Shown here: positions 3,097 through 58,569 of the stretch, piece after piece
Layout of the letters: each line of letters starts with the position of its first letter
How positions within the stretch are numbered: position 1 is the stretch's first letter
Origin: a virus
Virus record (IMG/VR): IMGVR_UViG_3300020420_000013
Coordinates: 4,325 to 68,324 of that record
Length of the DNA stretch: 64,000 nucleotides
Reading direction: 5' to 3' (one strand)
Notes under the pieces: generated by a model
Seen by the model: the letters and a program-made list of their open reading frames with translations, nothing else
The model's database searches: none
Told to the model about the DNA's origin: nothing
Translations under genes and position numbers: made by a program

Positions 3097-5940
3097 TTAG
3101 CCTAGTAAAGTTGCCCACAAAAAGTTGATATCTTCTGCATATTCCTGTGTCACAGAAGCACCACCTCCAGCCGCTAAAACCCATTGTGTCCCGTTCCAAG
3201 TTTCTAAATATCCTTGGTCTTGATTCCAACGTGTAGTACCTTGCTCCGGTGTTCCAGGTCTGTTTGAGTTATTACCTGCTGGTACAACTAGTCCATATAC
3301 ATTGTCAAACTTCAAATAACTGTAAGCATCTGCAAGTCCAAATGTAAACGGAGTGTTTAGTTTGTTGGTTACAGTTTGTCCTTTGAATTCAACATCTTCA
3401 AATGGAATTCCGCCTGTACCATTAGCAAATAAGTTAATATCTGCATCTGCTGTTGCTGATGTTATAGTATTTCCATCTAAACTAAACTTATTATCACTTG
3501 TAAACTTGTTTGTTTGTAATATATGTTGATTTAATAGTGTATTTTGTTGGTTTGCAGTAACAAATCTAAACTGATTATCATTTAAATTAATATATGTGTC
3601 TCTATCTCCATCACGCATAGTTGGAAAATACACTGTACCGCCGTTGTTACCTTCAAATTCTCCTATATCTAAATTATATCTTAAATCTGCAACTTGGTTT
3701 TTACGTTGTACTGTACTACCTGTAGGCAATTCTATAGATCCATTAGCACTTATTGTAAATGATGTGTTTGCATTAAGTCTTAAATCAGTTGCATTTGTAC
3801 TTGCTAAAGTATCGCCACTTGCTGTAATGTTATCAAATATAACTTTTCCTGTTCCTTGCGGATTAAGTTCTAAGTTTGCATTTGTTGATGTTTGTTCTAT
3901 AACGTTATCATATATTCTAAAATCATCTACTAGTGTTTGTGATAGGTTACTGTTCAACCAACGTTTAGTTGGACTACCTAAATTGTAAACCATATGCTGA
4001 TTAGGTTTTATATCTTGTGCAAACGGAGTATTAAAGTCTATTGTATCACTTGGATCATTACCAAAGTTAATCAAAGATCCTGCTAAAGTTACATTACCAC
4101 CGGTAGTAATACTCGGTGCTGTTACATTTGTTTTTAAATTATGCTGTCCTGTTATAGAATTAAAAGTAATATCTCCATCAATACTAGAAACTGTATTAGG
4201 ACTTTTTACTCTTATGTTACCAGTTTGGACTTTTGACCCATCTAAGAAAGTTTCTGCTGTACCTGTGGTAATTTTTAAACTAGTAAGTCCACCTGCAATA
4301 GAACTTGTATCAATACTTGTTGTTCCTTTTTCAAAATCAATAAAAAAGTCGTCGCCTACTCTAAAGTTTCCGCTTTGATCGACAGTTTGATAGTAAACAT
4401 TTCCACTGTTTAATTCTATAATTTCATTTGCTTGATTAATTAATGTTTTATCATTAGTTGGTTCTTTACCTGCACCAACATAAGCCATATTATGTTGTAT
4501 CAAATACATTAAACAATTGGCACCATCTGCCTTTGCTCCTATGTTTCCATATACACAGGCACTTCCAATGGATCTAACCTCTGCTCCTTTAATTAATACA
4601 CTATCACTTCTCCATCTTCCTGGACCATTTAAAGCATACATTCCTGTATTTGCAAAATATGTAAAACAATTTAACCACTCAACTCTTACACCGTTTGTCA
4701 TTGTCAGTGCATCAACACCAGGAGTAATAAATGTTGCCGCGTGGAATAACATACTTGCTTCATTTGTATCATGATCACAAACTTCTCCGTCAACATATAC
4801 GCCTTTTCCTGCGTCTCCTTGTGCAAAACCTCTTGGATCACTTGCAGAAGTAACTGAACCTTTTGTTATTACAGTTACGTTCATTATGTAAGGCGACCTT
4901 GACGTAACCTTTGCACCACTTCTAAAGCGGAATGCGTATCCTGTGTTGTCTGTACTGTTATAATAAAAGTCTTTGATAGTTAAATCTGTTACGGTAGTTT
5001 CACCATCTAGTAAAAAACAATCTTTATCGTTTGTTGCTGTTGTAGGTTTGATTATACAGTTTCTTAAATCTCTACCTTTAATGGTTACGTTTGCTGGAAT
5101 CTGTAAAGGAAATTGTTCTTCATATTCTCCAGGCTCAATATTAATAACTTGTCCTGCTGTTGCAATCGTTAATGCTTTTTTTAAAGTCCTAACTGCACCT
5201 TGTACTGTGTCTCCAACGTTTGTATCTAATCCATTTGTTGCAACATAAATGTTTCCTACACGTTTTGTTAAATCAATACCTTGGTAAATTAAGTTTTCTG
5301 TAAAAACACTGTTGGTTGTTATTTCTTCTGCATACAAACTCATACGTTTTCCTGTTACACCTAGGTCATATGTGTTTGTTACGTCCGGAACTAAATTACC
5401 AACTATGTCAGCATTGATTGTAAAGTTATCTTCATCACCTGTACCAGCAATAATAACACTACCATCGAATGTAATGTTGCCAGTTGCTTTTGTATTACCT
5501 GTTACAGTTACAGTCTTTCCTGCTGTTACAATTTCATTAGTTCCTATTCCATCTGGTCTAATATCAATATCACTATTTGTATTGTAAGTTGAAATTACAT
5601 TGCCGTCTATTTTAATTTGATTAGTTGCTAATCCACCAACGACAATATCTGTTCCTGATTGTAAGTTTATAGAACCTGTTAAACTGTCTATACCTGTTGT
5701 GCTTAATGTTAAATTACCTAAAACTACAGAATTGTTTATGAATAAATCTGGTTGTCCTGCTGTTGCATTTCTAAACTTTGCTGTACCATCAATGGTAAAG
5801 TCTCTAGGTCTAGTAACAGTCTTGATACCAATCTTACCGTCAGAATGACCAATATACAATAGATTAGTTTCTATTGCTAGATCAGTTTGTCTTTGTAAGT
5901 TGCTTTGTAAAAGCGGACCGGATATTCTTCCCAGACTCAT
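3097..5940 (-). CDS. Virion structural fibre/spike protein with parallel beta-helix-like region (947 aa)
   Basis: IYVATNGLDTNVG...RTLKKAL...I.IEPGEYEEQFPL motif typical of beta-helix N-caps. G/T/N-rich repeats. C-terminal PAGNNSNRP...GTTRWN...WNGTQW fibre motif. SD AAGGAG. Confidence 0.7.
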   Translation of the reverse strand: MSLGRISGPLLQSNLQRQTDLAIETNLLYIGHSDGKIGIKTVTRPRDFTIDGTAKFRNATAGQPDLFINNSVVLGNLTLSTTGIDSLTGSINLQSGTDIVVGGLATNQIKIDGNVISTYNTNSDIDIRPDGIGTNEIVTAGKTVTVTGNTKATGNITFDGSVIIAGTGDEDNFTINADIVGNLVPDVTNTYDLGVTGKRMSLYAEEITTNSVFTENLIYQGIDLTKRVGNIYVATNGLDTNVGDTVQGAVRTLKKALTIATAGQVINIEPGEYEEQFPLQIPANVTIKGRDLRNCIIKPTTATNDKDCFLLDGETTVTDLTIKDFYYNSTDNTGYAFRFRSGAKVTSRSPYIMNVTVITKGSVTSASDPRGFAQGDAGKGVYVDGEVCDHDTNEASMLFHAATFITPGVDALTMTNGVRVEWLNCFTYFANTGMYALNGPGRWRSDSVLIKGAEVRSIGSACVYGNIGAKADGANCLMYLIQHNMAYVGAGKEPTNDKTLINQANEIIELNSGNVYYQTVDQSGNFRVGDDFFIDFEKGTTSIDTSSIAGGLTSLKITTGTAETFLDGSKVQTGNIRVKSPNTVSSIDGDITFNSITGQHNLKTNVTAPSITTGGNVTLAGSLINFGNDPSDTIDFNTPFAQDIKPNQHMVYNLGSPTKRWLNSNLSQTLVDDFRIYDNVIEQTSTNANLELNPQGTGKVIFDNITASGDTLASTNATDLRLNANTSFTISANGSIELPTGSTVQRKNQVADLRYNLDIGEFEGNNGGTVYFPTMRDGDRDTYINLNDNQFRFVTANQQNTLLNQHILQTNKFTSDNKFSLDGNTITSATADADINLFANGTGGIPFEDVEFKGQTVTNKLNTPFTFGLADAYSYLKFDNVYGLVVPAGNNSNRPGTPEQGTTRWNQDQGYLETWNGTQWVLAAGGGASVTQEYAEDINFLWATLLG

Positions 5941-5959: not shown

Positions 5960-5965
5960 TATTTA
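5960..5965 (-). promoter_or_regulatory. Late promoter core (gATAAATA)
   Basis: TAAATA about 20 nt upstream of the 5940 start, followed by an SD. Confidence 0.65.
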
Positions 5966-5973
5966 TCGGAAAC

Positions 5974-8055: not shown

Positions 8056-8673
8056 TTATGACGCCTGTGCGTCTACAACAATACTTCCACTAGTTGCCGC
8101 CGCCTTAGTTGCAACACCACCTGATGTATAAGCAGTGTAACCTGAACCGTCAACACCTGATAACTCAAATGTATTAGTTGCTACGTTGGCTAATGTAAAT
8201 GCAGTTTCTACATTTAATTCAACCATACCAACAACACCTCTGATAGAGATCTTGTCGCCGTTACTAAAACCATGACCGGCTGATGTAATTACAACTGGAT
8301 TTGCCGCTGTCGCTCCTGTGATTGTTTTTTCAATCGCAGTTGAGGCACCTGCTGAATTACGTGACCATTTGTGTCTAGTCGCGCCTTCAAGTTGCATTTT
8401 TCTGTTGTACATTTTTGTAATTTGTTTTGTAACACCGTCACTGTCTGTAACGTTAATACAAAATTCACTAGCGCCTAAGCCGCCAATTGATTTGTTTACA
8501 AGTGTAACAACTTCTGTTTTACTTCCATCAGTAACTGTAAATTTGTTTGCTGATCTTTGATTTATAATATGTGACTCAGTAGTAATTTCTCCACCTGCCG
8601 CGAACTTAACCGCAGTTACTTGGATTTTACCTGCTCCATCACCTATATGTTTTTTATTAATTGGTCTTCCCAT
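8056..8673 (-). CDS. Virion structural protein with E1-FCCH-like beta domain (possible head decoration)
   Basis: ITGATAANPVVITSAGHGFSNGDKI.I.GV.GM.ELN...FEL.GVDGSGYTAYTSGG pattern; strong SD AGGAG. Confidence 0.65.
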   Translation of the reverse strand: MGRPINKKHIGDGAGKIQVTAVKFAAGGEITTESHIINQRSANKFTVTDGSKTEVVTLVNKSIGGLGASEFCINVTDSDGVTKQITKMYNRKMQLEGATRHKWSRNSAGASTAIEKTITGATAANPVVITSAGHGFSNGDKISIRGVVGMVELNVETAFTLANVATNTFELSGVDGSGYTAYTSGGVATKAAATSGSIVVDAQAS

Positions 8674-8690
8674 TTTGTTTCTCCTTTTTT

Positions 8691-8763
8691 AGAGTCCGAT
8701 GCAGGTTCTATCTGCTACGGGGTTTTGTCCCCATAAGTCCACCAAAATTATGTGGCACACTCT
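8691..8763 (-). promoter_or_regulatory. Four-way-junction structured 5' leader (candidate cis-regulatory RNA)
   Basis: Closing stem AGAGU/ACUCU encloses CCAC/GUGG, UAUGGGG/CCCCGUA and GCAG/CUGC hairpins. Sits between a late promoter and the SD. Confidence 0.6.
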
Positions 8764-8774
8764 CATGACAAAAG

Positions 8775-8780
8775 TATTTA
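8775..8780 (-). promoter_or_regulatory. Late promoter core (gATAAATA)
   Basis: Overlaps the stop codon of the upstream gene. Confidence 0.6.
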
Positions 8781-9200
8781 TCCAATATGTAATAATGGAT
8801 TAGGCTTGCGGACACTTACATTAATGAACTTACGAATGAAGTTAAAATTACCACTTAATGCTTCAAAGAGGTCGCTGTGTAGGTGTTTACTGCACTGGGT
8901 ATAACTTGTACTACCTATCTCTACAAAGTAACGTACAGACACCTTATTTTCGCAATATTCAGGGAATACACCTGTAAGGAATAGAGCACTATCTCCTAGT
9001 TCTTTTCCTTTCAAACGATTATTTTGGATTCCGAATAGTTCTTGAGCAAATGTTGTTTTGGGTAAAAAGTTTGGTTGATCTATTTTATCAGCAAGGAGCA
9101 TTACTACATAGGACTCAATCTCTAAAGGTAATTGATAACCTGTAGTCTCGGATGCCTCCTTGACAATGTCGTGAAAGGCCGATGTGTATTCGTCTTTCAT
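8778..9200 (-). CDS. Hypothetical protein (140 aa), resembles an uncharacterised bacterial helical family
   Basis: Clean ORF with motif ELGDSALFLTGVFPE...YFVEIGSTSY. TAAATA 5 nt upstream of the ATG and no SD. Confidence 0.7.
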   Translation of the reverse strand: MKDEYTSAFHDIVKEASETTGYQLPLEIESYVVMLLADKIDQPNFLPKTTFAQELFGIQNNRLKGKELGDSALFLTGVFPEYCENKVSVRYFVEIGSTSYTQCSKHLHSDLFEALSGNFNFIRKFINVSVRKPNPLLHIG

Positions 9201-9224
9201 ACATATATTTATCTGGGGAAAATA

Positions 9225-9453
9225 ACTTAAACACTACTTGGGAGGCCTTGCTGTGAACTCACCTCCAACTTTCGATAAGCAGATCACATCTGAATTTTGC
9301 AAGGTTTAGATATGATACCTACTTCCAACTACCTCCGCCTAAACCTAGCCACTTGGCCGCGTAAAAGACTTTAGTATGCATTAGGCCCCTGCCGAAGCCT
9401 TATTCTGCCACAAGTGCTAAGAGTTAATAACTCTCTTAGTTTGTGTTAAAGTT
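9225..9453 (-). ncRNA. Candidate ~230-nt structured phage ncRNA
   Basis: 5' AACUU.AACAC pairs with 3' GUGUU.AAGUU. Five internal stems. Own sigma70 promoter; upstream gp23 terminator; no ORF in the track. Confidence 0.65.
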
Positions 9454-9459
9454 AATATT

Positions 9460-9488
9460 AATATAACATTGTTTGAAATAAAAAGCAA
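9460..9488 (-). promoter_or_regulatory. Sigma70-type promoter for the candidate ncRNA
   Basis: TTGCTT (9488-9483), 17 nt, TATATT (9465-9460), with extended -10 TG. Confidence 0.6.
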
Positions 9489-9537
9489 CCAGAAAAGTGA
9501 AAAAGGTTTACCAAAATGTATATTTTGATTCAGTCAT

Positions 9538-9566
9538 AAAAAAAGGGCGACATAAGCCGCCCTTTT
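9538..9566 (-). terminator. Rho-independent terminator after the major capsid gene
   Basis: GGGCGG-CUUAUG-UCGCCC followed by U7. Confidence 0.85.
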
Positions 9567-9583
9567 AATAAGTTTACAAACTC

Positions 9584-10747
9584 TTATGAGAATGTTACGT
9601 TTGCTACACTAACTCTTGCTAGGTAGTCTGCCGCATTACCTAATGAAGAAGCAGTGTTGTTTAACTCAACATATCCGTATCTAGTCATGAAAGACACAAC
9701 TGGTTCGAAAGATGATGGGTCAAGTACAACGCCACTTGACATTAATGGAATGTATGGACAGTAGAACGCCGCCGCATCTGCTTCTGAAGTACCTTTGTAA
9801 CCTACAAGTACGTCAGTTGAGTCACTTGCGTAAGCATCAACGTACACTTTCATTGCACCATTTAAAGTACCTACTAATTTAGTATTAGTTGGTGCTTCGA
9901 ACGTACCTTCAGTTGTTCTTGCGAACGCTGAAGTTGTTGCAGACTGAAGAACTGTTAACGTATGCGGTGATACCACTGCAAAGTTACCAGCACCACGTCT
10001 TGTACGTTGTGCAATTTTGTTTGCCGCTCTGTTTATCATAACAGCCAACGCCGCGTGTTCATCACCCACGAATGTTGCTGTACCTGATACTGCGTTTTGA
10101 TCGTATTGAACGTCTGATTCAGCCGAACCAGCAAGTGTTCTTAAAGAATTAAGAACTTCTTGGTCGATTTCAGCAGTAATTTCTTGGGCTAATGCCGCCA
10201 TAATTTCTGCTTCGATATCGATACCTTGCTGTGCTTGAGCATCCTGAGCCGCTTCAAAAGTCCAACGAGCACTCAATTTACGAGTTTTCGCTTCAACTGT
10301 TTGTTTCAAGATCTGAATGCTTAGACGCTTACCAGCAATACCTTCTAAGTTTGCTGTTGCATCTGCTTTATCAGTAGATCCGCCACCTGAGTAACCTAAA
10401 CCAATTTGGAAAGGTGATAGTGCTTCTTCGCCTGCTGTTACGTCATCAAACGAGTCTGCATATCTTACTCTTAGTGTGTGGATTTGTCCAACTGGACCAG
10501 TCATTGGTTGTACACCTACGATTTCATTAGCGATAACCGTTGGCATAACACGTCTAATTACTGGTAGGATAACTCTGTTAAGAGTAGCAACGTTACCGGC
10601 GCTAGAGGCACCTGCAGTAGCCGCCTCTGCCAAATACTTTCTAGTATTTTCTAGAGTAGCGGACATCACAGACTTCTTATTGCCTGTTAGGCCTTCGAGC
10701 AACGCAACTTTTGTATCCTGCCATTTACTTTCTAAAAGTTCTGACAT
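9584..10747 (-). CDS. gp23: Major capsid protein (T4 gp23 family)
   Basis: Motifs LPVIRRVMP..IA.EIVGVQPMTGPVGQI, VEAKTRKL.ARWT.EAAQD, EITAEID.E, FYCPYIPL, F.P...FMTRYG. Confidence 0.97.
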   Translation of the reverse strand: MSELLESKWQDTKVALLEGLTGNKKSVMSATLENTRKYLAEAATAGASSAGNVATLNRVILPVIRRVMPTVIANEIVGVQPMTGPVGQIHTLRVRYADSFDDVTAGEEALSPFQIGLGYSGGGSTDKADATANLEGIAGKRLSIQILKQTVEAKTRKLSARWTFEAAQDAQAQQGIDIEAEIMAALAQEITAEIDQEVLNSLRTLAGSAESDVQYDQNAVSGTATFVGDEHAALAVMINRAANKIAQRTRRGAGNFAVVSPHTLTVLQSATTSAFARTTEGTFEAPTNTKLVGTLNGAMKVYVDAYASDSTDVLVGYKGTSEADAAAFYCPYIPLMSSGVVLDPSSFEPVVSFMTRYGYVELNNTASSLGNAADYLARVSVANVTFS

Positions 10748-38000: not shown

Positions 38001-38612
38001 AGCACAGATGAATTATATACAAGTTACGGACAAAGTATTAATGCTATTAAATCAATTAGCGATGAAGTAATTTATCATCCAGTAAAATATAAAGTACTAT
38101 TTGGAGATAAAGCAGATTTAAGTTTACAAGCAAAATTTAAAATTGTAAAAAATACAGAAGTAGTTGTTAATGATAATGATTTAAAAGTAAAAGTCATTCA
38201 AGCAATTAATCAATTTTTTGCTTTAGATAATTGGGATTTTGGAGATAAATTTAGTTTCACAGAAATGGCAACATACGTAATGAATCAAACAGCACCAAAT
38301 TTATTAACATTTGTAATAGTACCAGTTGAAGCAAATAAATCATTTGGTAGCCTATACGAAATAAATTCAGAATCCGATGAAATATTCATAAGTGGTGCAA
38401 CTGTTGATAATGTTGAAATCATTGACAACATCACTGCTACTAGATTAAAGTCTGAAGGTCAAGTAGTAACATCAACTACAACCTCAACAGGCGGTGTTTC
38501 AAGTAGTGCTTTCACTAGTGCAACTTCGTCCACAACTTCTTCTAGTAGTTCTAGTTCATCGAGCAGTAGCAGTAGCAGTGGATCAAGCGGATCTAGTGGG
38601 AGCGGATACTAA
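35097..38612 (+). CDS. gp6: Baseplate wedge protein (gp6 family)
   Basis: [65 protein letters not shown]. Confidence 0.88.
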
Positions 38613-41600
38613 TGGCATACGACAATAGTCAAAACGAAACTCCATTACCAACAGGAAAAAACGGAAACGAAACTCGTAAAGCGAGTAAGTTCTTACCTAG
38701 ATATTTTAGAACGGTTGCTAACGAAAAGTTTATTAGTTCTACATTAGATCAATTAATAAGTTCAGGTACAGTTGAAAAAGTTAACGGATATATTGGTAGA
38801 AGAAATGCCAAGGCATTTAATTCAACAGATAGTTATATTAATGACATTTCTAATTTAAGACAAGACTATCAATTAGAACCAGCAGTAGTAGTTGATGATA
38901 ATATAGGTAACACAACATTCTACAAAGATTACCAAGACTTTATTAATCAAACAAAAGTGTTTGGAGGCAATGTTGCAGACCATAGTAAATTAAATTCACA
39001 AGAATACTATGCTTGGAATCCGCATATTGACTGGGACAAATTTAGCAATTACAGAGAATACTATTGGTTACCAGAAGGTCCACAAACTTTAACTGTTTTA
39101 GGACAAGCAAAAGGAATCACTAGTACATACAAAGTAACAGTAGAAGACCAAGGCGATAATATGGCTTTTATTTTTACACCAGATGGCAAAACTGCTAATC
39201 CAACTTTAAAACTTTATAAAGGTCAAACATATAGGTTTGTTATAGATACACCAGGACATCCTATTGCGTTTGCAACTAATAGAGTGTTTACACCAGGTGC
39301 GGCTATTGTAACTGAAACCGTTGAGGGTGTTTTGGCGGCAGGTATATATGATAGTAAAATTTATGATAGTGCAAACTTTGACCAAAATGGATATCTTGTT
39401 AATCCTGTAGTTGGCGGTGTTGAAGGATATGAAGCAGGAAAAAATATTAGTACACTTTATAATAAAGGTGTTACAACTAGTGACGGTGTTGTATATGTTG
39501 AAAAAGGCGTATTAGAATTTACTATACCAGATGATGCTCCAGAAAAATTATTTTATATTAGTAAAAATGATGTAAACACTTCTGGTAGTATGAACATTTA
39601 TAATATTGAAGAAAACACTGCTATTGATGTCGATGCAGAAATAATTGGTAAACAGACATATACTACAGAGTCGGGTGTTTCATTTTCAAACGGTATGAAA
39701 ATTAGATTTGGCGGAGAAGTTACTCCGGCAACTTATGTAGGTAACGAATATTATGTAGAAGGTGTAGGCGAAGAAATCCAATTAGTCAATGAGGCAGACT
39801 TAGAAATTCCAGGATCGAGTACAGAATCAAAACAAATACCATTTGATACAGAATCATTTGATAGAGTACCTTTTAGTAATGCAAACAATTATCCTACACA
39901 AAAAGAATATATTGTTTTCAACAGAGCATCACCAGATAGAAATCAATGGTCACGTTTTAACAGATGGTTCCACAAAGATACTATTAGCCAAATTGCAACA
40001 GCAACGGGCACTCCAGAAATTTTAGATCAGACTGGTAGAGCAACAAGGCCTATTATTGAATTTGAAGCAGGTGTAAAACTTTATAATTTTGGTACAAAAG
40101 CAAAAGCAAATGTTGATCTTATTGATGTAAAAACAACAGATGTAATGAGTACCATTGAAGGTTCAATTGGTTACAACGTTGACGGAATAGATTTAGTAGA
40201 AGGTATGAGAATACTTTTCACAGCAGACACAGATAGTTTTGTTAAAGGTAAAATATTTAAAGTAAAATTTATAAAACATAGAAATAGTACATTTATAAAT
40301 CTTAAAGAAGAAACTGATGCATCTCCATTACAGAATGAAACAGTACTAGTTACTAATGGTACAAAATATATAGGTAAAATGTTTTGGCACAACGGTACTA
40401 CTTGGATTCAAGGACAAGATAAAACAGGTACAAACCTTGCACCAACATTTGATTTATTTGATGAAACAGGAAATAGTTTTTCAACTTACACAAATAATAA
40501 CTTTACAGGAACAAAACTTTTTAGTTATAAAGTAGGAACAGGAACAGCAGACACAGAATTAGGATTTGCATTATCATATCAAAATGTACAAAACACAGGT
40601 GACATAGTATTCAACTATAACTTACTTAATGATAGTTTTACTTACAATTTAAGTGGTGTTACAACAACAGTAAAAACTGATACAAGTGTATTACGTAAGT
40701 ACACAGATAGAACAGTGTTTACAAGTGTTACAGGTTGGCAAAAAGCAGACACTTTAAGTACTCAAGAAGTTGTAAGACAGTACGACACATCAGTAAAACG
40801 CAATGACTTTCCAATTGATGTATATAACTTCAGTGGCGATTTAAATAATTTAACTGCTAAAGTATATGTAAACAATCAAAGAAAAACCGAACTTACTGAT
40901 TATCAAATTAATAGAATAAACAGAGTTGCATATATTACTTTTACTACAAAATTAAATAACGGTGATAAGTTAGTAATCAAAACAACAAGTGAAGCCATAA
41001 AAAACGATAATGGATTTTATGAGTTTCCTAGTAACTTAGAAAATAATCCGCAAAATGCAAATTTAAATGAATTTACTTTAGGCGAAGTAAATGATCATGT
41101 ACAATCAATTGTAGATAATGTTCCGGGATTTTCAGGAACAAATCCAGGTACTAATAATTTAAGAGATTTAGGATTATCATCTAAGTACGGTACTAAATTT
41201 TTACAACATTCAGGTCCTATGAATCTTGCTTTGTATCACATGACAAGCAAAGATGCAAATATTATAAAAGCCTTAAAGTATGTTAAAAATGAATATTCTA
41301 AATTCAAAAGAAATTTTATTTCAACAGCAGAAGGATTAGGTTATGAAGGTCCTGCTAAACAACACGTTGATAAAATTCTTGCTAAAATGCATAATGAAAA
41401 AACAAAAGATAATGCATTTTATTTTAGTGATATGCTTGGGTCTGCAGATACTACTAGAAAAGAATACACAGTTGTAGATGCCGACGCACAATATTATGCA
41501 ATTAGTTTTGTACATAACTTAACGTCTTTAAGTAATAAAGCAGTTTACGTTTATCTAAATGGTAAGCAACTTGTTCATGGAACAGATTATACTTTTACAA

Positions 41601-44600
41601 CACAAGGCTTTGCACAAATTACAGCCACGTTGGCTATTGGTGATAAGATAGAAATATTTGAACACACAACAACTGATGGTTGTTATATTCCACAAACACC
41701 TAGTAAACTAGGTTTATATCCTGCTTATGTTCCGCAAAAATACAGCGATAACACTTATCAAACAGCAGTTGATGTAATACAAGGTCATGATGGAAGTATT
41801 ACAAAAGCATACGGTGATTTCAGAGACGATGTATTATTAGAATTAGAAAAAAGAATTTACAATAATATTAAAGTTCCATATGATAAAGAAGTTGTAGACA
41901 TACACGAATTCAAAGGTTCGTTTGATAGAGATACAGGATTTTCAAGAGATACTATTAACAGCGGTATGATGGCTGAATTTATTCAGTGGTTAGAAATAGT
42001 TGGTAGTTTAGATTATACAACAAGTGAATTTTATAGTAACACGGATACGTTTACTTGGAACTATGGTGCAATGACTAATCCAGATGGTGTTACTTTACCA
42101 GGCTATTGGAGAGCAGTTTACAAGCAATGGTTAGACACTGATAGACCACATACACATCCTTGGGAAGTATTAGGATATCACACTAAACCAACTTGGTGGG
42201 AAACTACATATGGCCCTGCACCTTACACAAATGAAAATAGAATATTATGGGACGACTTAACAGAAGGTAGAGTGCGTGAACCTAACAAAACTATTGTATA
42301 TAGAAATAATTACAAAAGGAAAAATTTAAATTTAAACATTCCTGTAGATAGCCAAGGACAATTAATTAGTCCTCATGATTGCGGATATGCACAAAACGTT
42401 GTTGTTCCTTTAACAAGTAATAACTTTGTGTTTGGCGACGAAGCACCTACTGAAAGTGCTTGGAGAAAAAGTTCAGAATATCCATTTGCGTTAATGATTA
42501 GTTGGTGTTTAAATCAACCTACAAAAATAATAGGATTAGGATTTGATAGATCAAGAACTATAAGGAATAGTGCAAAAGAATTAGTATATAGTGCAACAAA
42601 TAAAAGAATTGCATTAGACGATATAGTATGGCCTAATACTGCTACTGATACCACAAGAAGTCAAACAGCAGGATTTGTTAATTACATCTTTGATTATCTT
42701 TATGGAAGTATTACAACAACGATTGCAGATTACAAAGAAAACATTGCTAATCTACAAAACAAATTAGGTTGTAAACTAGGAGGCTTTACACAAAAAGATA
42801 AGTTCAAACTTATCCTTGACAGTAGAACACCTACAAACGAAGGTAATGTTTTTATTCCAGAAGAAAACTATAAAGTTATTTTTAATACAAGTTCGCCAAT
42901 TGATGCAGTCAGTTACAGTGGTGTCATTGTAGAAAAAGCAAAAGGCGGTTACATAATAAAAGGTTATGATAATACTGCACCAATGTTTAAATATAACAAG
43001 CCACTCGAAGTTGCCGCTGATCCTGTAAGAACAGTTGGCGCAGTCAGTGAAACTTTTGTTAAGTTCGAAGTAGGTCAAACTTATTCTGCAGGTACATTGG
43101 CTGAGAATGGACAAAAATATTACAGAGCAAAAGTTACTCATACAGCAACAGCATTCATAGAAGATAATTGGACACCGTTACCAGCACTACCTAGCAAAGG
43201 TGGACGTACTGCAATATTTAGATCTAAGTTTGAAAACACTGTAAGCACACTTCCTTATGGTACTACATTGTTAACAATTCAAGATGTAGTAGACTTTTTA
43301 TTAGGATATGGAAAGTACCAAACATCAATTGGATTTACATTTGATACATTTAATAGAGAATTAGAACAGGTTGAAAACTGGGATTTAACAACTAGAGAAT
43401 TTTTATTCTGGACTACACAAAATTGGCAAGAAGGTGCACTTATTACATTAAGTCCTTCAGCACAAGAATTAAACTTTAGTAGACAGTATGCGGTAGTTGA
43501 TGATATATTTGATCCATTCTATGATTACAGTTTACTTAAAGCAGATGGTAAAAAACTAAAAAGAAATTTCAGTAGTACAAAAAGAGATAGCCTTAATGAG
43601 TTTGGTTTGCAAGTTAAAAATAGTGCAGACGGAATATATCATTTAAAACTTCCATTAGTACAACGAGAACACGTTTTAATTATTGATAATAAAACTGTAT
43701 TCAACGATATAATTTATGATATTACACCTGGTTATAGACAAGAGAGAATTAAAGTATTAGGATATAGAACTGAAAAATGGACAGGTGGATTGAATATACC
43801 TGGCTTTATATATGATAGTGCAAGTTGTACAGAATGGGAACAATGGAAAGATTATGCAATAGGTGATATTGTACAGCATAAAACTTTTTATTATGTTGCG
43901 AATAAAAAAATCGCAGGCACTAGTACTTTTGCAGATCAAGATTGGAATGTATTACCTAAAAAACCAGAGAGTTCATTAATACCAAACTTTGAATACAAAA
44001 CAAATCAGTTTAGTGATTTTTATGACTTAGACACTGACAACTTTGATAGTGAACAACAGCGTCTAGCACAGCATTTAATTGGCTACCAAAAAAGACAGTA
44101 TATACAAAACATTATTAATGACGATGTTTCGCAATACAAATTTTATCAAGGAATGATCCAAGATAAAGGAACGTCAAATGCACTTACAAAAATGTTTGAT
44201 GCATTAGGTAGTGCTAACAAAGACAGTTTAGAGTTTTACGAAGAATGGGCACTTAAAAGAGGACAGTATGGAGCCTCACAAGGATTTGACGAAGTTGAAT
44301 TTTTACTTGACGAAAGTAAATTTAAATTAAGTCCTCAACCTGTAGAGTTGGTTAACTTTATAGATCCTAGTGCAACTGATTTAATTATAAGACAAGTACC
44401 AAGTGATGTTTATCTAAAACCACAAGGATATGCACATACTCCTTTCCCTACAAATTATTTTAGTGAAGGTTTTATAAAGACAGCAGGATACGTTAACGAA
44501 GATGATGTAAACTTTACATTAACAAATTATGATGATATATTAAACTTAGACCCTGCTAATGTAAATGTTAACAGTTATGTTTGGGTAGCAAAAGATTTAC

Positions 44601-47600
44601 AAACTTGGAATGTTTACAAGTATGCACGAACTAATATTAAAGTATTAGACTTAACAACTGATAGTGCAGGAGTAACAAGTATTAAATGTGTTAATGCACC
44701 TAATGTAGTAAAAGATGAAATTGTTGGTATAGGAAATGTAACAGGACAAGAGAAGTTTTTCAAAGTTGAAAGTGTATCACTAGATACTATTAAAGCAAAG
44801 GCTTCAACCGCACCTACTGCCGATGCTACTAACATAACAGGCTTTCTTACAAAATTTGAACTTGCTAGATTACCTAACTTAATCAAAGCAAATGAATTTG
44901 TTGGTAAAAGAGAAATAGAAGTAGGATCAACTGTTTGGGTAGATGATGACGATTCTAATAGATGGGTAGTATTAAAGAACACAGGCGGTTACGACTTAAA
45001 ACAAAACATATACAATGATAGCACAAATTATACGCAAGGAATAGAAAAGAATTTTGGTGCTAATGTTCATGCAGACGGAAATAACCAAACACTTGCAGTA
45101 GGTTCGCCAGACATAACTGGTAGAGGTAAAGTTCATGTTTATTTCAGAGGTAGTGAAAATATTAATCATATAATCACGCAAACAATTATAGAACCAGAAT
45201 ATTTCGCAGATGCTAATAGTGGATTTGGAACAGCAGTACATCTAAGTGAAGATGCAGAATACTTAATAGTAGGAGCACCGTTTGCCTCAAATGTTCGTAA
45301 CAAATTTAAAGGACAATTCAGCGGTGCATCAACTTATGCAAAAGGTGAAATTGTTAAATGGCAAGAACAGTTATGGAAAGCAACTGCAATTATATTACCT
45401 AAAGATGATAGCATAGATTACAATTCATTTAGATCATCTGCACAAGGACACCAAGCAATTAAGGATGCCAACACAGCAGGAACTTACATTGACATAAAAC
45501 ATATTGTTACAGGTAATTACGGATTAGTAAATCAGTCAACAGATCATATTTTAATTAGAGCACCAAAGAATCAATACAGAGGAACGCAAATAGGTGATGT
45601 ATTACATACAAAATGGAATAGATTGACTACTAGATATCCAAGCGGAAGAGATCCTTTTAATAACGATTCGACTTTAAATGCCGCGTTCTTTACAGGTACT
45701 CATACTATCAATGAAAAGGTTGATCAAATTTTATTAGTGCCAAGCACACAATCAGGGGTTAGCATTGGAGATATAATTGAAACTAGCGATGCTAGAGGTA
45801 AAGTCGTTTACACATTTACAAACGCAGATAACGAATCTGTAATTTATGTTAATGATGTTAATGGTACTTTTGCAACTTCCGGTGATTTATATTTTGGAAA
45901 TATCTTAATTGGTGCTTACACTTTACCTATTGTTGAAAATCATGCATATTACGATGGTTGGTGGAAAGTACAAATAGGATCAACAATTACTCCTACAACC
46001 AATGAAGAAAAATACTTTGGTCTAGTAATTAAAGATATTATTAAACTAAATGAATCAAGAACTCCAGATATCTATACAAATATATTAGATAACAAAGCAG
46101 TTGATGTTGCAACGGCTAATACGAAGAGCAGTCATTTAGAAACAGTTAGTCATACAGGCGCCACTGGTGCAGTAGTTGACAACAGAGTAATGATTAGAGC
46201 AAGTAAAACATTTAGTGATAGTCTTAATACTAGTGATAAATTTAGTTTATGGTTAAACAGCATTCCACTTACTAATGGAACAATACAAAATCCTAGTGCT
46301 ATTGCACTTGATTGGGCAACACTTAATTACACAGAATTTACAGTAAGTGACAAATGGGACGGATATTTAGAAATAGCATTTACAAACTTTGATACAGTTG
46401 GTAACAATAATCCTAGTGATCCTAATTATAATCCTAATTACGGTAATCCTTTCTTTCCTGTCGTAGGAGATACTATTAGAGGAAAAACTACAGGCACAAC
46501 AGCCACGGTTGCTTATGTAAAACAAGATTCAATTGCAGAGGCAAGAGTTTACTTCAAAAACAAAAGCGGTGACTTTAAAATAGGTTCAACGCAAAATGAT
46601 ACAGAGATTATAGAAATTACAACTTATACTCCATTAGGTGGCGGCGCTGATCAAATACTTGATATGGGTAGTATAACTGAAAGACACGCCGACAATGCCA
46701 ACGCAGGCAAACTACTTGTATTTGATTATGGAAGTAATATTACACCAGGTTCAAATGATAAGTTAGTGGACTTAGAATATTGGTTATACAAACAAAAAAT
46801 TATACAAGGTATTGCTAGTGATAGTAATCCACCAACTGATGTTAACAATGAATGGCAAAGGGTTTATAACATTCCTGTTGAACCTGCGGCAACATTTGTA
46901 GGTTATAATAAAGAAGGTTACTATGCAATCTATAAAAAGAATGCAAGTGGATATTACACATTACTAAATGCATACACACTTCCAGATGCAAATAACTTTA
47001 AGCATTTAGGAAACAAAATTAAAATTGTTAAAAATACATCAGGTTATACTGCAATTATTACTGAAAAAGGAAATAATACTTTTGCTGAACCAGGTAGAAT
47101 ACATTTTATAGATAATCCAGCAGGAACAGATAATTGGCAACTTGGTGCAGACACAAACTACAAAGGTCCTTGGAATTCTAATTACAGTTATTACACAGGA
47201 AATATTGTTATATGGAATAACAATTTGTACAAAGCAAAAACAAATATTGTACCTAGTGCATTTAATTCAAGTCTATGGACATTACAAACTGAAGAAATAG
47301 ATCTAGTAGGTTACGTACCAAATGATAGTGGCTTTACTATTGCCGGCGGCGATAGTGCAATTAATCAAACTAACATTTTAAGTTTCGGTGGCACTATTAG
47401 TGTAAGCAGTGATGGAAACGTTCTAGCAAGTACTTTAAAATATGGCGACCAAATTGATAGTAGTTTATCAAGTCCAAAGATTGCAATTTATAGACTTAAC
47501 CAAGGCAGATACCAATATGATCAACTGATTAGTGCTGAGTATGTTGATGAACAATTTGCAGAATCAGTAGCAGTAAGCAATGATGGAAAACTTGTTGCCG

Positions 47601-50600
47601 TAGGTGCACCTTACAATAGTGTTACTGTAAACAACGGTGGTTGTGTTTACATCTATAAAAATAATAACGGAACGTTTGTGTTAAATCAAACTATAAGAGG
47701 TCCTGGCGATTTAATTAATGAAAGATTTGGTACTAAAGTAGAGTTTGATGGTAATAGACTTGTTGTAAATTCAAGTGGCGGCGATGTACAAGATACTACA
47801 ACCTTTGATGGTAGTAAAGTAGGAAACGCATCTCCTATAACATCATTTGATAACAACTTAACAAACTTCACAACAACGTTTTCTAATACAGGAGAAATAC
47901 TTGTATATGAAAGAATTAATGATACTTTATTATTTGGTCAATCATTAGACTTTGATAATTTAGACTTTGATTCAACTATCACTGGTAAGAGCATATCGTT
48001 CTTTGGTGAAAACTTACACATACAAAACAACCACATTTATATTGGACTACCTAAACTAAAAAATACTGATGCGTCAGTTCTAGGCAGAGTTTTAGACTAT
48101 AGATTGCCTGCTACTACTAACATATGGACAAAACACAGAGTTGCAACTGATCAGGTGGATCTTAAAAAGTTAAAAGGTTCATTCTTATATAACACAAAGA
48201 CTAAAAAGTTTATAACATATTTAGATTACATAGATCCAATACAGGGTAAGATTGCTGGTCCGGCTGAGCAGGAACTTTATTTTAAAGTTGATTATGATCC
48301 TGCTATCTACTCAAATGGTACTGCAGGTTTTGTAGATACAACTAACTTTAATGCAGATGACTTGGTTGGTAAACTATGGTGGGATATAGGAGCAGTTAGA
48401 TTCCTTGATCCTTACTCAGGAGGTATTATTAATGTATCAAATAGATTTAATAAAAAGTTTACTGGTACTAGTGTAGATATTTACGAATGGGTAGAAAGTA
48501 GTTTACTTCCAAGCGAATGGGACGCACAAACAGATACTGAATCAGCACTTGCTTTAGGTATAAGCGGTACAAGTAAGTACGGGGATAATGCGTATTCAAT
48601 AAAAAGAATTTACAACAAAAACACAGGTACATTTACAAATTACTATTATTACTGGGTAAAGAACAAAAAGACAACACCAAATATTCCAAGCAGAACTATA
48701 AGTGCATTTGATGTACAAGCATTTATTGACTCTCCTGAAAAACAAGGATATAAATTTGTAAACTTATTAGGTAACAATAAATTTTCAATTCATAATTGCG
48801 AAAGTTTAATTGAAGGAAAAGATGTTGCAATTAATTTTAGATACTGGACTATCGATAATCAAAATATCAATATTCACAATCAGTATCAACTATTGACAGA
48901 CAGTTACGCGGCAAGTAAACCAAACAAAGATATTGAAAGAAAATGGTTTGATAGTTTAATAGGATTTGATGAACAAGAGAGAATAGTTCCAGATCCATTA
49001 GCAAGTCCAAAAGAAATGTATGGTATTCTTAATACTCCAAGACAAAGTATGTTTGTTAACAGAGTTGAAGCAATCAAACAAGTTATAGAACGTGTAAACA
49101 GAACACTAAAAGAAAAAGTTATGGTTGATGATTTCAATCTAACTTCTTTATCGAAATATGAAGGTGCTCCTGCAAGTGCGGAAGGATACTATGATAAAAC
49201 TGTAAACACTTATGCAGAATTATTATTAGTAAATGTTACAAAGAAAACTCAGGCTACTTTAAATCCTATCATTGTAAACGGAAGAATAACTGATGTATTA
49301 GTAGATGAAGCAGGTAGAGGATATACCACTGCACCTAGAGTAGCAATAACAGATCCACAAGGTTCTGGTGCTGAAATAAAACTTACAATAAACGCCATTG
49401 GGGCAGTTACAGGTGCAACAGTTACTAAACAAGGTAATGGTTATACAGATGCAACTAGTTTACAGGTTAGAAAATATTCAGTGTTAGTTTCAGCAGATGA
49501 AAATTATAACAATAGATGGTCAATATACGAATATGTAGGCGCAACTTCTCCTTGGAGTAAAACCAAAGGACAAAAATATGATGTAAGACCATATTGGAAT
49601 TATGCTGATTGGTATGCAACAGGTTACAATGAATTAACAGGAATTGATCATACTGTTGGACAAAGTTATGAGTTAGGAAGTTTAGAAGCAGACATAGGAG
49701 ACATTGTTAAAATCAATACTGTTGGAACAGGCGGTTGGTTATTGCTTAAGAAAAAAGATAGTCAAGTAACAAGTGATTACACAATTAACTTCACTACAAT
49801 AGGTAGACAGAATGCAACTATACAATTTACAAATGCTTTATATGATTATGCTAACAGCGAAGTAGGATTTGATGGAATAAGTTATGATGAAAATAGATAT
49901 GACTTACAGCCTGCAAAAGAAACACGTATAATTTTAGAAACTTTAAGAGATCATTTGTTTGTAGATGAATTAGAAACAGAATATAACAAGTTATTCTTTA
50001 CAAGCATACGTTACTTACTGTCAGAACAACCATTTGTGGATTGGTTATTTAAAACTTCATTTATAAAAGCACAACACAACGTTGGTGAATTACGTCAAGA
50101 CATTACATATAATAATGATAACTTACCTAGTTACCAACAATATGCAGAAGAAGTTAAACCTTACAAAACTAAAATTAGAGAATTTATTAGTAACTATGAA
50201 AAAATAGATACTACTGGTACAACTGTAACTGACTTTGATCTACCTCAATACTACTTAGATACAGAAGGTAAAATTGTACCACAAGAAATTACAGTAACAG
50301 ATAATGAATTCTTTAGTACAAATGCACAAACAAGTGTATATCCAAGTAAACATTGGTTAGACAATGCAGGATTTGAAATAGAAAAAATTGCTGTATCAAA
50401 TGCTGGTTCAGGTTATACTATTGCACCAGTAGTAAGAATTACAGGCGGTGGCGGAACAGGCGCAACTGCTATTGCATACGTTGGTGGCGGAAAAGTTACA
50501 TCAATTAAAGTTACAAATGGTGGTAGTGGATATAAGAGTGCACCTACAATTAAATTAGATGGCACGGTTTCTTCAAGTGGTGTAGAAGCAAGTGCATCTG

Positions 50601-53600
50601 CACAAATAGGAAAAGGTAAAACTAGACAGTTTAAAAATGTAATTAAATTTGATAGAACAACTGACGATCTAGTGTTTGGTAAATTTGATGTAGCATATTC
50701 AACAGGTGCTAGTGCTATCCAAGGCGGACCATTACAGGTTGCAACTACTATTCCAGGTAGAGAACTAGAACAAGACTTTAGTGGTACAGGATCACAATTC
50801 CAGTTTAATTTGAAATTTCCTATTACACTTGACAAAGAACATTATAGAATTTTAATCAAAGACAATAATAATCCATTGAATGTTTGGACAGAAGTATTAC
50901 AAACAAGTTATACGCCAAGCAATGAAGAAGATATTGCTTTAGGAAGAAGTAGACAAAGAGGTAGAATTACATTTGATACTCCACCTGCAAACAATACGAC
51001 ATTAAGAGTAAGATATCAAGTAGATAATGCATTCTTAACTTATGCAGATAGAGTACACTTCTTGTACGAACCAATCGCAGGTATGCCTGATAAGTTATTT
51101 GATCAACTAATGAAAGGTATTGACTATGGTGGAGTTCAAGTTAAGAGTTTTGACTTTGGCGGCGGAACTGGTTGGTCAAGTGATCCGTACTATACATCTG
51201 CTTTTGACACTTATGATACTACATATGAAGATGAAGTATTTAGAATAGATAATAGTACAAAGGTGTTTACATTTAAAAAACCTCTTGAAACAGGTATTGT
51301 TTATAATGTATATAAAAATAATGTAAGAATAGATGATCCAAACTTTGGAACTGCAAATCAAACAAATGTAAATGCAAAGATTACAAGTATTACAGGTGCA
51401 GGTCAAACAGGAATCGCACTTACAGACGACCAGACATATACAAACCTAGTTGTCATAGACGAACAAGTTGTACCAACAGCAGACAATGATGTAATTGTAC
51501 TCAGAAAAACTACAAGTGATGGTTCGTTTATTCCTGATCCAAGAGCATATGATACAGCATTAAGTGGCGGTAATTTAAATTATGGTACTGCAACAGGACT
51601 TAATGCAGAGGACATTGTTGTAGACGGTGACGGGTTTGTTACACCTACGTCAAGTGGCGGCCCAGAAGAATTAGTTCAAGGACAAGTTCTTGACACTCTT
51701 GACATAAAAGTTTATGACAGAATAGGCGAAGGTGGTAGTATCGTTGATACTAGATCATATGATGTAGACACAGCAGGAACAGGAGTATTTGACTTTGGTG
51801 TTTATCCTCAAAGTAAAGAAGGAATATTTGTTAAGAAAAACAATGTTATACTTGGCCCAAGTGCTTATACTGTAAACTTTAGAACAAAGAAAATTACAAT
51901 ACCAAGTTTATCTCTGAATGATAGAATTAATATTATTACAATGAGTGGTAATGGTGAAAAGATACTTGATATGGATCAGTTTACTGGTGATGGAAGTACA
52001 TTACAATATGTAACACAGGTTAATTGGCAAACAGGTTTAACATCTTTTGTTACAGTAGATGGACAAATAGTAGATTACGTAATAGAAACTACCGACAGCA
52101 CATATGATACAACTAATAAAGTTGCAATTACATTTGGTGCTCCTCCGGCAGTAGGTGCTGTTATAGATTATATGATTTATGCAAGTGAAAGTAAAGTATT
52201 TTCTGAAATTAAAAAAGATACATTTACAGCAGATGGAAGCACTCAAGTATATACAATGAGTGTAACGCCATTCAGTTCATTACCTAGCACACATAACGTA
52301 ATTGTAGAAACGTTTACAAATGCAAATGATAGAAAAGTATTAAATGCAGGATACAATGAACAGTTTACAGTGGAGTCAAATAAGTTTGAATATCAATTAA
52401 AGAACTGGCAACAACCAGGAGGTACTTTAGGTGCTACAGATATAGATGTCTACTTGAATGGTGTTGCTCTAACTTATACTTCAGACTTTATCTTTAAACC
52501 TGCAAATACAAGTATTGAAATATTTGAAAATGTTGCAAACGTTGGTGACATATTAGAAATATTTGTTAAGACAGATGGTCAATATACTATCAATGGCAAC
52601 CAACTAACATTGTCAACTCTGCCTGCAATAGATACAAAAGTTGTTGTAACACACTTTAGTAAACATGATATCCAAGCAATAGAAAGAACAAACTTTGATA
52701 TTGTGTCAAGATCTACTTTGAATGTTGGCTCTAAAGATGATTTAGAATACAAACAGTTACGCAATGGCTTGATTAAATTAAGAAAACAAGCATACGATAC
52801 TGAATTTGTTTGGTTAGTTGTAAATGGTAAAGTACAAACACCTAATGTTGACTACACATTAACAAACGATAATAAATTTATTAGAACACTTAATCCATTT
52901 GCGGACAATGATGTTGTAGAAATAATTGAATTTGCAACAGAAGGACCTATCACTGGCAAGTTCGGATATAGATTATTCAAAGATATGTTGAATAGAACAG
53001 TTTACAAACGTTTGGGTGATAGTAACTCTTACAGACTTGCTAAAGACTTAGGTGTATTTGATAAAGAACTTGAAGTAGATGACGCTACTAACTTACCAAC
53101 TCCAGATATAACAAACAATATTCCAGGTATTATCTTCATAAATGCTGAACGTATTGAGTATTTTGTTAAGTCTGGTAACAAATTAAGACAACTTAGACGC
53201 GGTACATTAGGTACTGGAGTAAAAGAATTACATAAAAAAGGTGATGAATTGTTCAACCAGGGTATAGACGAGACCATACCATATCAAGATAAATTATTAG
53301 TACAGAACTTTACTACTACAAACAGTCTTGTTAGTGGAAATTATGTGGAAAGAGAATATACGTTGGATTGGAATCCAGCAAGTCGCAACGAAATGGAAGT
53401 ATTCTTAGGTGGACAACGTTTAACCAAAGGATACCTAAACACAGGCGGCAGTGCAGTTAAGGACATATTCCACCCAACTACTGGAATGGATAGTCCAGAT
53501 GGTGATATTACAGTAACATTACCAAATTATCCTCAAACTTGGGGACTAGAACGTGATGGATTTAGAGTACAATATGACTCTAGTACAAATAGCACTAAAA

Positions 53601-53764
53601 TTTATGTATATTCACTGGCAGATGGAGAGAAATTAACAGTGATTCGTAAGCAAGGACAACTTTGGAACGATATTGTAGACAGTACAAGCACAAAGAGTTT
53701 GGGTAGATCCCAAAATCCAGTGGCTCAGTTCATTCGTGCAAAGGAAGTGAAATTGCCAAACTAA
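38612..53764 (+). CDS. Giant (5050 aa) baseplate/virion protein at the gp7 position, multi-domain
   Basis: Uninterrupted ORF coupled to gp6 (TAATG). Cupredoxin-like segment, CBM5/12-like repeats, FG-GAP-like repeats, GSGYT.AP.V.I.GGGG repeats, FT(G/A)DGST repeats. Confidence 0.8.
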
Positions 53765-58560: not shown

Positions 58561-58563
58561 AGA

Positions 58564-58569
58564 TAAATA
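58564..58569 (+). promoter_or_regulatory. Late promoter core
   Basis: gATAAATA upstream of SD GAGG. Confidence 0.6.

Follow-up and report, generated by a model that had tools for sequence, protein, structure and literature searches.

What occupies the non-coding block of about 230 nucleotides (nt) that lies between the major capsid gene and the next open reading frame (ORF) in a 64,000-nt stretch of virus DNA (IMG/VR record IMGVR_UViG_3300020420_000013, positions 4,325 to 68,324; the window hereafter)? An initial annotation had proposed a stand-alone non-coding RNA with its own promoter rather than merely a leader of the gene behind it. The analysis reported here identifies a real and conserved RNA gene that is represented in RNA libraries. 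We lean towards reading it as a divergent, separately transcribed member of the manA class of RNAs (Rfam RF01745) that acts in trans and possibly self-assembles. Coordinates within the window are collected in Table 1.

The RNA stands behind a promoter of sigma-70 type, annotated initially as TTGCTT-17-TATATT with an extended TG and present as such in the sequence; a consensus scan did not list it because TTGCTT matches TTGACA at only three of six positions. Equivalent promoters (TTGnnn-16/17-TAnnnT) end 6–8 nt before the closing stem in all 34 distinct homologues, and 26 of these also carry the TGn element. A regular expression recovered 32 of the 34, while L201 and L228 (TTGACC-17-TATAAT) were recognized by eye. 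Outside clade 1 of the three clades described below, the –35 boxes are nearer to consensus than that of the window. Since the clades have nothing in common in the DNA preceding the promoter and the promoter is nonetheless retained with the RNA, the two evidently travel together. To judge by the promoter type, the host polymerase should read it early in infection. The block itself is non-coding: the window's ORF list contains no ORF of at least 30 amino acids (aa) on the minus strand inside it. A smaller frame of 14 codons, beginning with UUG in the purine-rich stretch, was considered and rejected, as it is broken by a 1-nt insertion or deletion in clade 2 and the substitutions there are compensatory.

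Homologues were collected along two routes. A capsid-protein search of IMG/VR supplied the best 80 of 598 related stretches, used here as capsid loci, and the RNA block occurs in two of these 80 (L001 and L005). In addition, exact-pattern scans with conserved blocks returned 21, 34, 38 and 40 IMG/VR stretches and 47 metagenome stretches. Pooling the window with L175–L261 gave 77 full-length and 11 truncated copies, with 37 distinct full-length sequences; three of these (L216, L219 and L237) were chance pattern matches with no alignment outside the pattern and were left out of all counts, leaving 34 homologues with a covarying structure. In clade 1 the RNA follows the capsid gene. In clade 2 it lies between small kinase-like ORFs and an ORF of ~330 aa, which in both loci tested (L104 and L109) encodes a gp32-like single-strand-binding protein (SSB; phrog_1192, E 3.5e-69 and 5.3e-69). 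In clade 3 the RNA sits beside an exonuclease gene or, in a second record, a radical-SAM gene. A freshwater-2 RNA lies directly downstream in L112.

Within the window, our model R1 scores 280 bits on 9216–9455 and finds this one copy; the RNA is likewise single-copy by R1 in the records G001–G003, of which G001 (306 kb) is 87% complete. No match was obtained by blastn (distant mode) of 9150–9620 against 50,697 phage records, or by R1 over the complete genomes of Pseudomonas phage PA5oct and Vibrio phage 2.275.O. Five further related records (G004–G008) gave no R1 match either, but these are fragments, so that absence is not shown. A scan of 185,579 species genomes with a pattern of 20 specified bases revealed no bacterial copy, although distant copies would escape an exact pattern; its sole match, inside an 842-aa ORF and scoring 8.7 bits with R1, was judged to be a chance occurrence. 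A search with ARAGORN for tRNA and tmRNA genes was negative for the window and for 14 homologue loci.

The case for a defined structure rests on comparison of the homologues, because the single-sequence fold (229 nt) is unremarkable (–65.6 kcal/mol, z = –1.72; 10 of 200 shuffles fold equally well). Ten helices comprising 58 pairs, namely P2–P10 and one pseudoknot, were counted in alignment A4 of the 34 sequences. For the structure derived from these same sequences, standard pairs fill 97.7% of 1,970 cells, compared to 40–52% when the 3′ partners are slid by 1–3 columns. Moreover, both partners have changed in 21 of the pairs (0–8 after sliding), and the covariation score is 0.299 (0.057–0.089 slid), values reached by none of 500 shuffles. 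Changes on both sides are the robust part of this structural evidence. The closing stem P1 varies in length, which prevented column counting, and was therefore assessed sequence by sequence: the duplex has –8.4 to –14.4 kcal/mol in all 34 homologues, against shuffled means of –2.7 to –5.9 kcal/mol, and at least six different sequences occur, all of them complementary.

Variation is distributed unevenly over the remaining helices. P5 exists in GGC/GCC, CGC/GCG and CCC/GGG forms, P10 has both-sided changes in two of six pairs, and P9 in one of six, where A-U is replaced by G-C in 16 of the 34 sequences. Among the eight pairs of P8, one has changed on both sides and three on one side. The pseudoknot has one both-sided change in its five pairs, from G-C to A-U in five clade-3 sequences; as far as can be read from the sequences, its pairing may form within one molecule or between molecules. 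P4 varies from A-U to G-U only and, never having changed on both sides, is treated as a predicted helix. Long invariant unpaired blocks lie between the helices (GUGGCRGAAYAA, UAAYGCACA, GGUGGUU and the P9 loop). A screen of all columns against all others revealed no tertiary pairs, being too noisy with so few clades.

Five of the eight helices in the initial annotation hold in this comparison, and three do not. The proposed pairing of the two ends, AACUUUAACAC with GUGUUUAAGUU, is complementary in every homologue once its 3′ coordinates are moved by one base. Compensatory changes also support CUAAGAG/CUCUUAG, GGAGG/CCUCC and the ACUUG/CAAGU portion of CACUUG/CAAGUG; the AAGGCUU/AAGUCUU pairing placed inside the latter fails, with 63.9% of cells paired. 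From AGGUUUAG/CUAAACCU there survives a 5-bp core, GGUUU/AAACC, which forms the pseudoknot, whereas the outer pairs are broken in 10–12 of the 34 sequences. The suggested long-range contact GGGGCCU/AGGCCUC (71.8% of cells paired) had to be abandoned, as did CAGAU/AUCUG, which is paired in 94% of cells yet has no both-sided change and competes with the covarying P8.

Evidence of expression comes from seawater and marine metatranscriptomes, in which 17 RNA runs match part of 8650–10000; four of these, from four studies, were examined. Three runs from three studies each yielded one contig wholly inside the RNA, at 9244–9437 (196 nt), 9258–9441 (184 nt) and 9244–9441 (198 nt), the last being a variant with the CCC/GGG form of P5. 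In these three runs no contig covers 9478–9523, and almost none covers 9202–9243. A promoter in all 34 homologues whatever their neighbours, a non-coding block and RNA-limited contigs in three studies speak for the stand-alone small RNA originally proposed, although no terminator hairpin marks its 3′ end, where P1 is followed by a U-rich run.

The relation to manA, which the initial annotation had missed, is seen where the slot behind the capsid gene holds something else. Eight of the 80 capsid loci carry a different RNA in the same slot, behind the same type of promoter, and seven of these eight were scored against RF01745 (L043 was left out as a duplicate of L042). With a gathering cut-off of 55.2 bits, three sister-slot RNAs scored 75.4, 55.7 and 55.5 bits and four more 44.7–49.8 bits. 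The same model gives a full-length, co-located alignment to clade 2 (L264) at 22.9 bits, with an E of 4e-4 when the search is limited to a 301-nt region, and to clade 3 at 19.0 and 16.7 bits. On L264, the alignment places P2 on the first manA hairpin, P3 on the long-range helix, GUGGCGGAAUAA on GUGaCUGAAUAA, P5 on the hairpin that comes next, UAACGC on UAAgGu, and P9 and the P3 3′ strand on the last hairpin and closing strand. Specifically, the manA 5′ module (hairpin, 5-bp long-range helix, GUG-aC-UGAAUAA junction, hairpin, UAAgGu) is present there with high posterior probability, and the 3′ module, P9 plus the P3 3′ strand, falls on model positions 152–187. In the P4 region the manA model has an alternative 2-bp pairing, GC...GC. 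The centre is different: the manA central junction (three hairpins in a 6-bp helix) and the long bipartite hairpin are unaligned on L264, and the variant centre, made up of P10, P6, P7, the pseudoknot and P8, has another topology.

A MAFFT alignment of the ends of seven manA and seven variant members likewise contains common motifs in the 5′ and 3′ modules and similar P2 loops (AGUAAUUA); the common 3′ motif, UUG.AGGUG...CAAG.CCU.CC, was read partly by eye, as the MAFFT rows are offset. The two RNAs have the same order of elements, comprising a 5′ hairpin, the long-range helix, a GUG..GAA.AA junction, a hairpin, UAA, a terminal hairpin and the closing strand. The 5′ module in common can be written as hairpin, GUG-GC-R-GAA-Y-AA junction, P5 hairpin and UAA, and the 3′ module as a UUGG-R-GGUG...CAAGG-CC hairpin followed by closing strands. 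Both RNAs occupy the same genomic slot with the same promoter type, and both are marine, phage-borne and about 200 nt long. They differ in the P9 loop, which has 16 nt in the variant and 11 in manA, and in their carriers, ~350-kb jumbo phages for the variant and T4-like cyanophages for manA. Because the ends are homologous and the slot, promoter and closing stem are the same, while the centre differs and the window copy has no match, we file the RNA as a divergent manA-class variant and not as a member of RF01745. No second manA-like RNA was found in G001, which fits the variant replacing manA rather than adding to it.

Canonical manA copies in the sister loci have, in seven of seven cases, their own promoter and a closing stem that the Rfam model does not include; in five, an intrinsic terminator was recognized by eye. 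To judge by these sequence features, canonical manA RNAs in these phages are independent genes rather than 5′ untranslated regions (UTRs). In L063, L017, L047, L042 and L009 the promoter has the form TTGACT/TTGCTT-16/17-TATATT, a terminator can be made out by eye, and AUAAGCA...UGCUUAU is one instance of the closing stem.

We favour a self-contained, trans-acting particle because all seven manA copies have their own promoter and because the variant keeps its promoter while its neighbours change. The host polymerase would transcribe the RNA early in infection from the sigma-70-type promoter, and the transcript would fold with P1 as closing stem, P2 as a side hairpin, and P3 enclosing a pseudoknotted core (P4–P8, P10 and the pseudoknot) and the terminal hairpin P9. 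The folded particle would then act in trans, not as a leader or riboswitch, and its copies would probably assemble through loop–loop contacts, by analogy with canonical manA. One candidate contact joins CUUGC in the P8 loop (L8) to GCAAG in the P9 loop (L9), which are complementary in 27 of the 34 sequences (–6.2 kcal/mol, compared to about –2.4 kcal/mol for shuffled loops). The analogy draws on a preprint of July 2026 which, in its accessible text, describes cryo-electron microscopy of manA as a 60-subunit icosahedral-like cage, as decamers and as octamers, all of them assemblies of pentamers held by kissing loops, with variants that have a common core and differ in peripheral contact helices (bioRxiv 10.64898/2026.07.01.735769). 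A conserved core with a variable periphery, as described there, matches the pattern of conserved ends and different centre in the variant.

Like self-assembling RNAs more generally, the variant is a highly conserved non-coding RNA of phages whose fold has conserved loops. ROOL and GOLLD are self-assembling RNA cages or oligomers, and the phi29 packaging RNA (pRNA) is a phage RNA of about 120–170 nt with its own early promoter and paired 5′ and 3′ ends that oligomerizes by loop–loop pairing. However, the variant has no sequence or structure match to pRNA, and T4-type packaging machinery, as in the window phage, is not known to need an RNA. A bolder version is that the variant constitutes a third architectural type of manA, an RNA gene of ~350-kb jumbo phages, read early by the polymerase of their marine bacterial hosts, that builds symmetric RNA-only particles (rings or capsid-like shells) in the cell through its own loop contacts, which we consider possible but doubtful. 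If it were true, RNAs of the manA type would in general work in trans as particles that assemble themselves, not as riboswitches.

A number of results weigh against a manA-class RNA that acts in trans. At the gathering threshold, Rfam identifies only freshwater-2 in the window and nothing at the RNA, and at E ≤ 10 on 9100–9650 it returns only terminator-like noise, with no RF01745 match for the window copy. All members of the variant family score far below 55.2 bits. Conversely, R1 finds no canonical manA copies in the sister loci, and for this reason the relationship rests on sub-threshold co-located alignments, the end modules and synteny. With regard to the fold, derivation of the structure from the sequences on which it was counted flatters the comparison with slid controls, and P4 and most of P8 and the pseudoknot are weakly tested because they barely vary. 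The L8–L9 complementarity is lost in all seven clade-3 sequences (–2.2 to –2.8 kcal/mol, the level of shuffles), so that this contact is a lead only, and the preprint on manA, in its accessible text, is a single report of oligomerization in vitro, not in cells (bioRxiv 10.64898/2026.07.01.735769). Past P1 the window has just a U-rich run in place of a terminator hairpin; read-through into the 140-aa ORF, and hence a leader role, could therefore occur. The metatranscriptome contigs place the sequence in RNA libraries, apart from its flanks, but say nothing of strand, transcript ends or abundance. They stop where the strain-conserved core stops, DNA may have been carried over into the RNA libraries, and the fourth run (X3) covers the 140-aa ORF but not the RNA.

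The principal alternative is a cis-acting leader or riboswitch, in which a P1-closed aptamer would sense a metabolite and control the downstream gene, here the 140-aa ORF. This is how manA itself was first rated: found in the 5′ UTRs of various genes in marine bacteria and in T4-like cyanophages, it was put forward as a candidate riboswitch (Weinberg et al. 2010, PMC2864571), and the accessible part of a 2023 cyanophage paper repeats the proposal without testing it (PMC9964418). An ORF 24 nt downstream in the window, with no intervening terminator hairpin, would suit such a role, and aptamers typically have pseudoknotted folds of this sort, closed by a stem like P1 and with junction bases that do not vary. 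Yet what lies downstream is unrelated across clades, whether the 140-aa ORF, the SSB gene, the exonuclease gene, the radical-SAM gene or, in L112, freshwater-2 RNA, and in seven of seven clade-2 loci a second, full sigma-70 promoter separates the RNA from the ~330-aa ORF. Intrinsic terminators follow canonical manA in sister loci, and the 140-aa ORF has its own late-promoter-like GATAAATA box, in agreement with the late promoter initially assigned to this gene. No expression platform was found in the window, be it an alternative terminator or a helix sequestering the Shine–Dalgarno (SD) sequence. We regard a leader or riboswitch as unlikely.

The initial annotation suggested a protein sponge, an anti-defence decoy or a ribozyme as possible functions. 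A protein-binding RNA, which might titrate a host factor or defence protein as a decoy or sponge, or serve as scaffold in a phage ribonucleoprotein, seems quite unlikely, although the long invariant unpaired blocks could be recognition surfaces, the promoter is of early type, and the patchy, accessory distribution (two of the 80 capsid loci and none of the five additional records) resembles that of counter-defence genes. No protein gene co-occurs with the RNA, Rfam shows no resemblance to known protein-binding RNAs, and the SD-like GGAGG boxes are not conserved, being GGGGG or AGCGG in other clades. A more specific candidate, an SD mimic or anti-SD sponge, was rejected on this last ground. The compact pseudoknotted core with its many invariant unpaired nucleotides might also suggest a ribozyme, self-processing or otherwise, which could supply the defined ends needed where a terminator is lacking; however, at E ≤ 10 the RNA matches none of the ribozyme families in Rfam, no conserved signature of a cleavage site was recognized, and the manA relatives were solved as intact assemblies, according to the accessible text of the preprint (bioRxiv 10.64898/2026.07.01.735769), making this explanation highly improbable. 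Likenesses to RNase P, signal recognition particle RNA and the L11-binding region of 23S rRNA had no Rfam support and were dropped.

The variant family is not in Rfam 15, and full-text literature searches (structured RNA with T4-like phages, gp32, metagenomes and covariation; manA and wcaG motifs) found no such RNA beyond the papers cited here. One survey, in its accessible part, predicted 10,006 unnamed candidate RNAs from IMG/VR, 12 of them directly upstream of GP32 genes (PMC10690425); the variant family may be among these and hence possibly already catalogued. Six record numbers of the family were not found in the searchable part of the supplements, which does not extend to alignments and position files (PMC10690425). 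manA, proposed in 2010, is still an orphan among riboswitch candidates, and its cages are presented without biological context in the accessible text of the preprint (bioRxiv 10.64898/2026.07.01.735769). In the jumbo phages considered here, manA-type RNAs are independent transcription units with a promoter and closing stem and, in canonical copies, often a terminator. The 34-sequence sub-family in three clades keeps the manA end modules around a different centre and goes undetected by Rfam, and RNA and promoter move together among unrelated genomic neighbourhoods. Whether such RNAs are leaders or trans-acting particles is now directly testable, and the natural variants offer material for asking which parts of the fold set assembly geometry.

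Table 1. Features of the RNA and its surroundings in the window. Both-sided changes and paired cells refer to the alignment of 34 homologues.
Feature	Position	Strand	Details
Major capsid protein ORF	10747-9584	-	Pfam Gp23, E 8.9e-99
Intrinsic-terminator-like hairpin of capsid gene	9538-9562	-	Stem 9562-9556 / 9551-9545, loop UUAU, T7 at 9544-9538
-35 box TTGCTT	9483-9488	-	TTGACA, TTGACT or TTGACG at the same distance in homologues elsewhere
Extended -10, TG-n-TATATT	9460-9468	-	Hexamer 9465-9460; spacer to -35 box 17 nt
~230-nt manA-like RNA	9224-9453	-	Predicted +1 at 9453; last paired base 9224
P1 5′ strand	9443-9453	-	AACUUUAACAC; pairs with GUGUUUAAGUU at 9234-9224
P2 hairpin	9417-9439	-	9439-9433 / 9423-9417; both-sided change in 5 of 7 pairs; first manA-model hairpin
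P3 5′ strand	9411-9415	-	Pairs with 9240-9236, encloses core; both-sided change in 3 of 5 pairs, 100% of cells paired
P4 5′ strand GGCAGA	9404-9409	-	Pairs with UCUGCU 9283-9278; 100% paired, near-invariant
P5 hairpin	9383-9400	-	9400-9394 / 9389-9383, loop GGCA; both-sided change in 3 of 7 pairs, 100% paired
Central domain	9328-9379	-	P10 (9379-9373 / 9333-9328) enclosing P6 and P7
P6	9369-9366 / 9340-9337	-	Both-sided change in 3 of 4 pairs
P7	9358-9355 / 9350-9347	-	Both-sided change in 2 of 4 pairs
Pseudoknot	9303-9345	-	GGUUU 9345-9341 with AAACC 9307-9303 in P8 loop; 100% paired
P8 hairpin	9284-9315	-	9315-9308 / 9291-9284; conserved 16-nt loop; 99.3% paired
P9 hairpin	9241-9266	-	9266-9261 / 9246-9241; near-invariant loop UGAGUUCACAGCAAGG; last manA-model hairpin
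GATAAATA late-promoter-like box	9206-9213	-	Before next ORF, 5 nt from ATG 9200
Next ORF, 140 aa	8778-9200	-	ATG at 9200; no Pfam or PHROG family
freshwater-2 RNA	8671-8755	-	RF02980, 68.1 bits

The genes in this region are encoded on the minus strand, and a prohead protease (Peptidase_S77) gene precedes the capsid ORF. The terminator initially annotated behind the gp23 gene was confirmed as a GC-rich hairpin with a T7 run, read by eye, whereas the consensus terminator scan listed none; in L005 the stem has a different sequence with complementarity kept, a compensatory change. Between this terminator and the –35 box, ~50 nt (9490–9537, minus strand) of the form UAUGACU..AAUCAAAAUAU..UUUUGGUAAACC are conserved in L001, L005, L006, L009 and L014, and this conservation extends to loci with manA in place of the variant RNA. 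The segment could mark a recombination joint or act as an UP-like element for the RNA cassette.

The DNA 3′ of the capsid gene is otherwise highly variable across the 80 loci. Relatives of the 140-aa ORF were found by tblastn in just three of them (L001, L014 and L054), making this ORF an inconstant neighbour of the RNA, and in L054 the capsid gene is separated from the ORF homologue by 67 nt with no RNA in the gap. The GATAAATA box in front of the 140-aa ORF resembles the T4 late box TATAAATA, and the same box precedes downstream genes or freshwater-2 RNA in clade 1 and sister loci. The window contains four copies, at 5960–5967 (–), 8775–8782 (–), 9206–9213 (–) and 58562–58569 (+), a number not above chance (4.85 expected); each of the four is followed on its own strand, at a distance of 5–25 nt, by an ORF start or by freshwater-2 RNA. 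These boxes are likely late promoters, and a transcript of the 140-aa ORF from the box at 9206–9213 would be almost leaderless.

Structured RNAs are gathered behind the capsid gene as in an island. In the window, freshwater-2 starts 20 nt after a GATAAATA box (8782–8775) and ends at the ATG (8673) of a 205-aa ORF that is major-tail-like (phrog_584) and matches Pfam E1_FCCH, and it has the appearance of a 5′ UTR belonging to a late structural mRNA. A freshwater-2 RNA follows manA or the variant RNA in L001, L006, L017, L042, L047, L063, L112 and L114. In the sister phages L006 (3754–3803), L047 (3972–4021) and L017 (4166–4213), a glutamine riboswitch aptamer (RF01739, 47–60 bits) separates manA from the capsid gene, and in L006 a 65-aa ORF comes next. 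Although freshwater-2 and the glutamine riboswitch are found in the same variable stretch as the variant RNA, their folds are unrelated to it; moreover, freshwater-2 follows a late-promoter-like box and runs right up to a start codon, whereas the variant RNA has its own sigma-70 promoter and closing stem.

The source record of the window comprises 68 kb and is rated 19% complete. By capsid protein, its closest isolated relatives are ~350-kb jumbo phages with 67–71% identity, namely Vibrio phage 2.275.O, Serratia phage BF, the Erwinia pEa_SNUABM phages and Sinorhizobium phage Phosso. Elsewhere in the window, a single ORF of 5,050 aa at 38612–53764 (+), with nearby ORFs of 1,171, 858, 696 and 687 aa, is typical of jumbo phages.

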